Source of the DNA: a virus
Lineage: Duplodnaviria > Heunggongvirae > Uroviricota > Caudoviricetes
Reading direction: 5' to 3' (one strand)
IMG/VR virus record: IMGVR_UViG_2695420427_000008
Span: 1-5,216 of that record
Length of the DNA: 5,216 bases
The notes beneath the pieces are model-generated. The model did no database searches. It saw only the letters and a program-made list of their open reading frames with translations, and was not told the origin of the DNA. Below are positions 896-5,216 of the stretch, piece after piece; position 1 is the stretch's first letter, and every line of letters begins with the position of its first letter. Made by a program: the position numbers and the translations under genes.

Positions 896-923
896 AGCCT
901 CGCATTCGCGGGGCTTTTTTATT
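896..923 (+). terminator. Probable rho-independent terminator downstream of the lysis cassette
   Basis: Stem AGCCTCGC (896-903) pairs with GCGGGGCT (908-915): 8 bp with one G-U wobble, loop ATTC, immediately followed by TTTTTTATT (915-923). It sits ~175 nt after the Rz stop. Confidence 0.5.
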
Positions 924-1232
924 GCCATTACAAAAGCCACTCCCTACAGAGTGGCTTTGATAATGGCTTATACCCTACACGGGATAACTTAACTGATATC
1001 CCTTTTAACGGATAAAGGTATTCAAGCCTGACACATCATGCGCTGTATCGTCGCCGTATTCCCGTATTAACAGAGACCGTAGCCCGACGGGGAACTCCTT
1101 CTGCGAGAGTGTGCGGGAATAATCAAAAACGATGCACACCGGGTTTTTACCGCGTTTATGGTTCGCGGGTTTGTCCCTCATGCTCGCCAGTCCTGTGCGA
1201 GGGTGGAAGAAACAGGACGTGTATTCAGGTCT

Positions 1233-1266
1233 GTGCGACCGTGGTCGCACGCATTTCTTTTATTGC
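1233..1266. promoter_or_regulatory. Perfect palindrome GTGCGACC-GT-GGTCGCAC followed by a T-rich tract; candidate operator or attenuator/terminator hairpin
   Basis: Positions 1233-1240 are the exact reverse complement of 1243-1250, followed by GCATTTCTTTTATTGC (1251-1266). It lies 13-30 nt upstream of the RBS/ATG of the small ORF at 1279. Confidence 0.4.
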
Positions 1267-1537: not shown

Positions 1538-1549
1538 GGGCGGAAGGCG
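1538..1549. other. cosN: cosN core (position of the 12-nt cohesive end); sequence here is GGGCGGAAGGCG
   Basis: Located by alignment to the lambda junction ...GTTACG | GGGCGGCGACCT | CGCGGGTTTTCGC. The window reads ...GTTACG GGGCGGAAGGCG CGCGGGTTTTCGC: same length, first 6 nt identical, last 6 nt differ (AAGGCG vs CGACCT as I recall lambda). Confidence 0.6.

Positions 1550-2246: not shown

Positions 2247-2272
<26 letters not shown>
1727..2272 (+). CDS. nu1: Terminase small subunit gpNu1
   Basis: 181-aa ORF MEVNKKQLADIFGASIRTIQNWQEQGMPVLRGGGKGNEVLYDSAAVIKWYAER..., near-identical to lambda gpNu1 as I recall it (N-terminal winged HTH that binds cosB). Same length as lambda Nu1 (546 nt). Confidence 0.97.

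Positions 2273-5216
<2,944 letters not shown>

Follow-up and report, generated by a model that had tools for sequence, protein, structure and literature searches.

The 18-bp inverted repeat at positions 1233-1250 of the stretch of DNA analysed here (the window, 5,216 nucleotides) is very probably a copy of the partition centromere site (IR) of N15, and as such a putative SopB-binding site. By its sequence and position the palindrome would belong to a class that is already known, the N15 IR class, a close cousin of the F sopC repeats. The novelty may be modest and twofold. The cos-proximal copy is unannotated in the records examined, where it falls into a gap or under an over-extended 102-aa PGAP ORF, and N15-type sites appear to be widespread yet visibly decaying in integrating lambdoid prophages.

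Structure of the palindrome and its match to the N15 sites

Read directly from the window, the repeat consists of the arm GTGCGACC (1233-1240), the centre GT (1241-1242) and the arm GGTCGCAC (1243-1250). The arms are fully complementary. Since the GT at the centre is not its own reverse complement, the repeat is a dyad of the form 8+2+8; as a feature it has no strand. Right next to it, on the 3′ side, lies a T-rich stretch on the plus strand, GCATTTCTTTTATT (1251-1264), and downstream of the palindrome come GAGGT at 1270-1274 and an ATG at 1279. An earlier sequence-only reading of this DNA had pointed out both the dyad with its T-rich tail and a ribosome-binding site at 1270 just after it; both were present as described, the former spanning 1233-1264 with exactly complementary arms.

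The shape of the palindrome alone is not beyond chance. Perfect repeats with 8-bp arms and loops of at most 10 nt are expected about once per composition-matched random sequence of the size of the window; the window has five, of which three are parts of one hairpin at 933-967. An exact match to a known site with 16 specified bases is expected 1.2e-6 times per window, and it is because of this exact identity, rather than its shape, that we regard the palindrome as non-random. In the whole 5.2-kb window we found no further copies of the palindrome and no excess of half-sites beyond chance. The Rfam scan of the whole window (E<=1) recovered nothing at or near the palindrome, and its three sub-threshold matches, located elsewhere in the window, were driven by terminator hairpins.

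Read on the opposite strand, the 18-mer is exactly the core of N15 IR4, GTGCGACCACGGTCGCAC. The match to the published IR1-IR4 cores at 1233-1250 is complete, as the core of the palindrome is identical to IR4 and IR1 and all 16 specified bases (GTGCGACC NN GGTCGCAC) agree. The N15 centromere sites IR1-IR4 were reportedly described as SopB-binding inverted repeats by Ravin and Lane in 1999 and by Grigoriev and Lobocka in 2001. The genome of N15 (NC_001901) has exactly four such sites: at 33479 inside repA, at 35930 directly after Q, at 41124, where the site ends at 41141 and thus 21 bp ahead of the late -35 box annotated from 41162, and, some 800 bp away from the right end, at 45561 between genes 58 and 59. 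The central dinucleotides of IR1-IR4 are AC, TC, AT and AC. IR1-IR4 are SopB-binding centromere sites, and their oligonucleotide sequences including flanks are available (PMC7205306, Table 4). We noticed that IR1 (33479-33496) reads GAGCGACC in the genome and GTGCGACC in the oligonucleotide of PMC7205306. The N15 reference record (L124), for its part, labels IR4 (45560-45584) as 'putative rho-indep. transcription terminator'.

The position of the window site is syntenic with a known N15 site, as it lies between the lysis region and cos like IR4. Its syntenic counterparts are N15 IR4, downstream of g58, and the sites IR4a and IR4b of N15-like loci. The site was also found to be conserved in loci with N15 marker genes and altered in most loci without them, in lineages that are not independent of each other (see below). 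Like IR4, the window site is a dispersed single copy and not part of an array, situated between lysis-region genes and cos. Its flanks, however, are unrelated to those of IR4, the left one being a module common to integrating lambdoid prophages. The N15-like relatives differ from the window in having two or three sites in this region instead of one, as well as a g57 gene and a second flanking site, both of which are missing here. The single copy in the 5.2-kb window compares with 3-5 copies over 10-30 kb in the relatives. No sop genes were found in the window.

The sopC repeats of F resemble the window site in having 7/8-bp arms around a 2-bp centre and in being bound by a homologous SopB (the F and N15 proteins are 49% identical); N15 SopB is reported to act on sopC too. 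The F repeat contains the 16-bp site TGGGACCACGGTCCCA (PMC3597684), and the SopB sites of N15 and F differ in one nucleotide per half-site (PMC2910045), which fits TGGGACC in F as compared with TGCGACC in the window. F SopB is not functional on N15 sites (PMC7205306). The arrangement is different, as sopC comprises 12 tandem 43-bp repeats beside sopB and the window has a lone dispersed site. The suggestion of the sequence-only reading that the dyad is the site of a dimeric regulator is thus borne out in part: it appears to be a dimer-binding site within a family of repeats, but the protein would be SopB and not a regulator dedicated to the neighbouring ORF.

Genomic context and the closest phage-plasmid relative

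The window represents a lambda-like late/packaging region. It starts in the region of an endolysin gene end, followed by Rz (243/255-722), a 50-aa ORF that is very common in lambdoid prophages (710-862), a conserved lambdoid module recognised by homology (923-1232), which forms the constant left flank of the repeat, then the repeat and a small ORF of 69 aa. The cos region starts at 1504-1560 on the plus strand and is homologous to the genome ends of lambda, 2B8 and N15-like genomes. Further downstream lie Nu1 (1727-2272), A (2247-4172), W and the start of B. Using the positions of cosQ and cosN in lambda, we take GGGTCCT at 1508-1514 to be a cosQ-like element and assume that cosN is nicked after CGTTACG, at 1537/1538; this would place the palindrome within the virion DNA, about 288 bp from its right end. 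The inverted repeat with 26-nt arms at 1646-1702, upstream of Nu1, is the counterpart of the R elements of cosB, which are inverted and bind terminase, as is known for lambda.

Positions 1180-1540 of the window (361 bp) are 100% identical to plasmid III of E. coli RL465 (NZ_LT906558.1). This is an N15-like linear element encoding protelomerase (telN), RepA, CB/Cro/Q, lambda-like structural genes and sopAB. It carries five sites, and the fifth one (29155-29172) is cos-proximal with both flanks identical to those in the window. The SopB of this plasmid closely resembles that of N15 from one end of the alignment to the other, with few substitutions in the recognition segment 179-200, the segment that sets the DNA specificity of SopB (PMC2910045). 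The 61.5-kb record (L125/L126) contains protelomerase, the repA region and sopAB each twice and in inverted order, and several of the duplicated gene copies are frameshifted. The arrangement suggests that a linear element of about 47 kb was assembled as if folded back on itself at its hairpin telomeres.

Copies of the site in other genomes

The search for additional copies of the dyad proposed in the sequence-only reading proved fruitful, as it revealed a family of sites comprising at least 119 loci in IMG/VR and including those of N15. The scan detected the pattern GTGCGACCNNGGTCGCAC in at least 119 enterobacterial-type viral contigs with 44-57% G+C. Among the matches listed, there were up to 4 copies per 10 kb and about 10 unrelated flanking contexts; the 8-bp arms were invariant and the centre was free (AC/GT 146, AT 5, GC 3). 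Most of the listed copies lack the T tail. N15 proteins were used in tblastn to label the IMG/VR loci, and most listed copies turned out to be syntenic with N15 sites, being located after Q, after g51 before the late promoter, or after g57/g58 before cos.

The other listed contexts are head or tail gene clusters of different contigs. In one of them, type F (L005, L022, L026, L039, L123 and about 30 others), the site is located roughly 1.5-2 kb downstream of a homologue of the S49 prohead protease, and the palindrome extends to 13-bp arms (ACGCT...AGCGT). In type G (L008, L009, L050 and others) the 18-mer lies inside the tail-gene region. L039 has both a type F site and, downstream of g58, a copy resembling IR4. 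Types F and G therefore probably represent centromere sites in further lineages of telomere phages, whose structural modules differ. A perfect copy is also found on the chromosome of E. coli M18 (L128, 4054-4071), in a defective prophage. There, the Lom gene follows about 270 bp after the site and is itself followed by tail genes, with no terminase or head genes annotated between.

One variant of the site, GTGCAACC GT GGTTGCAC, carries a symmetric double change (G5>A and C14>T). It occurs in phage 2B8 (L127, 48654-48671), L152 and L162, and L143 represents a single-change intermediate having only the first of the two changes. Either the dyad is selected in phages without sop genes, or the second change arose via hairpin-templated correction. 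We also considered this variant as a specificity family of its own and rejected it, since it had seven matches in IMG/VR, two of which are the same lambdoid locus type.

State of the site with and without N15 markers

For this comparison the loci were chosen by their left flank, the constant sequence GGAAGAAACAGGNCNTGTATTCAGG, which avoids any selection for a particular state of the site. All 18 loci with N15 marker genes (18/18) have a perfect site, with immediate flanks that vary between subtypes. The loci without N15 markers comprise 22 with a perfect site, 20 with one or two mismatches and 39 in which the site is decayed or precisely deleted (59 altered); the decayed form reads GTGTGACTGTGGTCGCAA. 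Perfect sites next to the markers and decaying sites elsewhere would be the pattern predicted by SopB-dependent constraint. We take it as supportive only, as the loci are not independent lineages and the 18/18 contrast overstates the statistics. The left-flank scan of a genome collection with one genome per species returned a single locus.

Chromosomal lambdoid prophages encoding an identical 69-aa ORF show an altered site in ten cases out of ten: they carry GGCCGCAC / GTGCGACCGTGGCCGCAC, with the one-sided mutation T13>C that breaks the dyad. These prophages have CI/Cro/CII/O/P/nin/Q genes and lie on contigs of up to 5 Mb. In the metagenome scan, the only other perfect copy with the right flank of the window was present on an N15-like contig with the order g52-lys-Rz-g57-site-ORF. 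L184 and L046, which are true lambdoid genomes having P, nin and Q genes of the lambda type, also contain perfect copies, and a perfect site is therefore no proof of a Sop+ genome.

In ten IMG/VR loci (L133, L139-L141, L153, L158-L160, L167 and L185) the repeat is missing together with the first bases of the right flank, and the surrounding flanks are intact. Comparison of the flanks would fit a deletion that ran from one short GGTCT direct repeat to another.

Proposed function of the site

In N15 and F, a dimer of SopB binds the inverted repeat via its HTH motifs, and the bound SopB nucleates a larger complex by spreading, which together with SopA partitions the replicon (PMC2910045, PMC3597684, PMC7205306). 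N15 SopB on an IR array at att-lambda formed foci and silenced a promoter about 50 bp away (PMC7205306). By analogy, we infer that SopB binds the window copy as well. One dimer of an N15-type SopB, a helix-turn-helix protein of the ParB family, would sit on the palindrome with one HTH on each 8-bp arm and would leave the centre free. N15-like linear phage-plasmids have three to five such sites scattered over their right arm; SopB at these sites nucleates the partition complex, SopA uses the complex to segregate the plasmid prophage, and the spreading SopB can silence promoters tens of base pairs away. According to the title of a 2008 paper by Ravin, Rech and Lane (J Bacteriol 190:3538), the N15 Sop system facilitates late gene expression. 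The window copy would be the cos-proximal site, syntenic with N15 IR4 and placed at the joint of the lambdoid module and a variable right flank, here the probably truncated small ORF. It would act like the N15 IRs whenever an N15-type SopB is present. If it resides in an integrated prophage, it would be an orphan and have no function, except in cells that also contain an N15-like plasmid.

Whether by one route or another, it seems rather improbable that the intact near-cos sites of integrating lambdoid prophages act in trans with co-resident N15-like phage-plasmids. Conceivable routes are that the sites serve as decoy centromeres which disturb the partition of the plasmid, a form of exclusion by partition incompatibility, that plasmid-encoded SopB silences or tethers the late/cos region of the prophage, or that the site is a preferred crossover point for swapping packaging and lysis modules between integrating phages and phage-plasmids.

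The putative assignment as a SopB centromere site replaces a generic guess, 'hairpin or operator', by a precise and testable identity. It matters for annotation, as such sites are routinely mislabelled as terminators, the GenBank record of N15 itself being an example, or left unmarked in relatives, and the 18-mer could serve as an inexpensive indicator that a sequence has N15-type ancestry or has recently been exchanged with N15-type elements. The packaging-proximal region is common to integrating lambdoid prophages and N15-like linear phage-plasmids, with the centromere site at the joint. The difference between sites intact in Sop-bearing genomes and sites decaying elsewhere offers a small natural experiment on selection at a protein-binding site.

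Mosaic structure of the window and the origin of its site

The site coincides with a break in homology. Of 115 BLAST alignments, 76 end at 1249-1251 and ten more at 1234, and one and the same left flank is combined with three or more classes of right flank that are unrelated to one another. Positions 1-1218 of the window are found contiguously, at about 95% identity, in ordinary integrated lambdoid prophages without the site, some of which have a different terminase type. Lambdoid prophages and N15-like elements have terminase A proteins of identical sequence, and segments like that of the window but with a mutated site are present in integrated lambdoid prophages. We found no record of the same mosaic by BLAST against phages, plasmids and E. 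coli genomes, exact-protein look-ups with terminase A and with the 69-aa and 50-aa ORFs, or junction scans. Because the general lambdoid part (1-1218) is combined with a segment identical to a phage-plasmid, the window is best described, on the basis of these alignments, as a recombinant that draws on two gene pools, lambdoid and N15-like, and has the site where they meet.

This leaves two putative origins. The window may come from a phage-plasmid bearing sopAB, in which the site would be a working centromere, and we give this origin slightly less than an even chance. We lean slightly towards the other one, an orphan site brought by recombination into an integrating lambdoid prophage.

In the strongest competing interpretation the site is a functionless relic in this DNA, and the 18-mer or a cruciform formed by it marks or even promotes crossover. 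We consider it quite possible, and only a little short of evenly balanced. It would account for the pile-up of alignment ends on both sides of the repeat, the unrelated right flanks on a single left flank, the mosaic of a lambdoid part and a phage-plasmid-identical segment, the terminase proteins shared by N15-like elements and lambdoid prophages, and the several independent mutations and deletions of the site among loci without N15 markers. However, the window site is perfect and the nearest chromosomal relatives with the same ORF are all mutated. Moreover, break points beside a conserved island are expected whether or not the island promotes recombination. The relic is also not a different identity of the palindrome, but a special case of the centromere-site assignment, with the same identity in an inactive state.

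Similarity to an intrinsic terminator

The sequence-only reading interpreted the palindrome as a terminator or attenuator, and some of the features of the hairpin indeed point in this direction. Folded as RNA, the palindrome reaches -13.2 kcal/mol (z -2.3) and consists of a 4-nt loop on a stem of 7 bp, or of 8 bp if a G-U pair is counted; 5/200 shuffles fold equally well. As single-stranded DNA, the palindrome reaches -7.6 kcal/mol. A simple scan for terminator patterns flags it. The folding upheld the GC-rich hairpin of 7-8 bp in the earlier description; the U-tract is interrupted. The palindrome has a stable GC-rich stem and a loop within the range of 3-8 nt, and lacks an uninterrupted U-tract directly 3′ of the stem. 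It resembles the intrinsic terminators of lambdoid late regions in combining a GC-rich hairpin with a T-rich stretch in the direction of late transcription, and it differs from them in the interrupted tail, in a stem that is invariant across loci and in that no gene ends upstream.

We consider it unlikely that the palindrome is an intrinsic terminator or attenuator placed before the small ORF and cos, which Q-modified transcription would read through. The GC-rich stem, its folding energy and the hit in the pattern scan speak for it, as does the terminator label on IR4 in the GenBank record of N15. The symmetric change GTGCAACC..GGTTGCAC in 2B8, L152 and L162, with L143 as intermediate, retains the pairing, but it fits a dyad bound by a protein equally well, and among the homologues it is the one double change that keeps pairing, most variants breaking the stem. 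Three non-T bases open the tail (G-C-A, or C-A if the G-U pair forms), and the tail score of the d'Aubenton-Carafa type is 0.88-1.47, compared with 4.36 and 3.57 for two other hairpins of the window (896-915 and 967-924). Elsewhere the same 18-mer has A-rich or neutral tails with scores of 0-0.8. The strong hairpin at 896-915 already closes the upstream unit, and immediately ahead of the palindrome there is no end of a plus-strand gene. A hairpin would require only pairing, yet the sequence of the arms is invariant across unrelated flanks. Finally, lambdoid relatives tolerate one to three stem-breaking changes or the full deletion of the repeat with flanks intact. The likeness of the palindrome to an intrinsic terminator is thus superficial. 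The stretch GCATTTCTTTTATT belongs to the flank of this version only and not to the conserved site, and is at best a weak terminator tail. With its interrupted U-tract, the T-less copies elsewhere and the invariant arms, the terminator/attenuator proposal of the sequence-only reading is a weak one.

The small ORF downstream of the palindrome

The 69-aa ORF on the plus strand (1279-1488) is preceded by the Shine-Dalgarno sequence GAGGT at 1270-1274. It is 39% identical to the N-terminal approximately 55 residues of a 197-aa ORF, which follows the same repeat in N15-like loci (L006, from 5291). Since only this N-terminal part is matched, the 69-aa ORF is probably a truncated remnant, as far as can be judged from the alignment. 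It has a weak match to phrog_2571 and no family in Pfam or NCBIfam, and exactly this protein is recorded in 429 protein-collection blocks. We also considered it as a relative of N15 gp59, and BLASTP showed no similarity. The 102-aa version predicted by PGAP, which is extended upstream across the palindrome, very likely has a wrong start.

The palindrome had been thought to control this ORF. The claim found no support. Phage 2B8 and loci of the L011 type have the site, at a distance of 85 bp from cosN, but lack the ORF, and the 10/10 chromosomal prophages with the identical ORF have the one-sided mutation of the dyad. The wider possibility of an operator for a different dimeric transcription factor, serving either the ORF at 1279-1488 or a divergent minus-strand unit, draws on the dyad symmetry 28 bp upstream of the ORF start and on the location in a 97-bp gap between annotated divergent ORFs, but it is highly improbable, given that the promoter scan of 700-1800 found no sigma-70-like promoter on either strand, that the minus-strand ORF is probably no gene, that the site and the 69-aa ORF occur independently of each other, and that a known binding protein already accounts fully for the sequence.

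The conserved upstream module, its hairpins and the cohesive end

The module at 923-1232, on the left of the putative centromere site, is conserved among lambdoid phages and shares homology with the region upstream of bor, both in lambda (46868-46974) and in prophages of the DLP12 type. It is probably non-coding. The minus-strand ORF 1181..1005, a 58-60-aa 'hypothetical protein' in RefSeq and gene callers, is probably not a gene, as it fails coding tests. Its substitutions show no bias for the third codon position, and several of the 16 distinct full-length sequences of its homologues (31 loci) have premature stops or frameshifts; Pfam and NCBIfam contain no family for it. The minus strand of the module folds with z -3.4 and ends in a hairpin of -30 kcal/mol with a U tract. 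Rfam gave no match for the module, which could be a conserved non-coding RNA or a promoter/leader.

Two strong terminator-like hairpins sit back to back and facing each other between the 50-aa ORF that follows Rz and the conserved module. The one on the plus strand (896-915, followed by TTTTTTATT) resembles an intrinsic terminator with -14.1 kcal/mol, z -4.2 and a tail score of 4.36, and the long one on the minus strand (924-967) has a U tract, -30.1 kcal/mol and a tail score of 3.57. The latter would terminate minus-strand transcripts of the module. We regard these two hairpins as the real insulators of the region. Phage Ayreon has a terminator annotated somewhere under its match to positions 882-1218 of the window.

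The 12-base cohesive end of the window (1538-1549) reads GGGCGGAAGGCG. It differs from the cohesive end of lambda, GGGCGGCGACCT.
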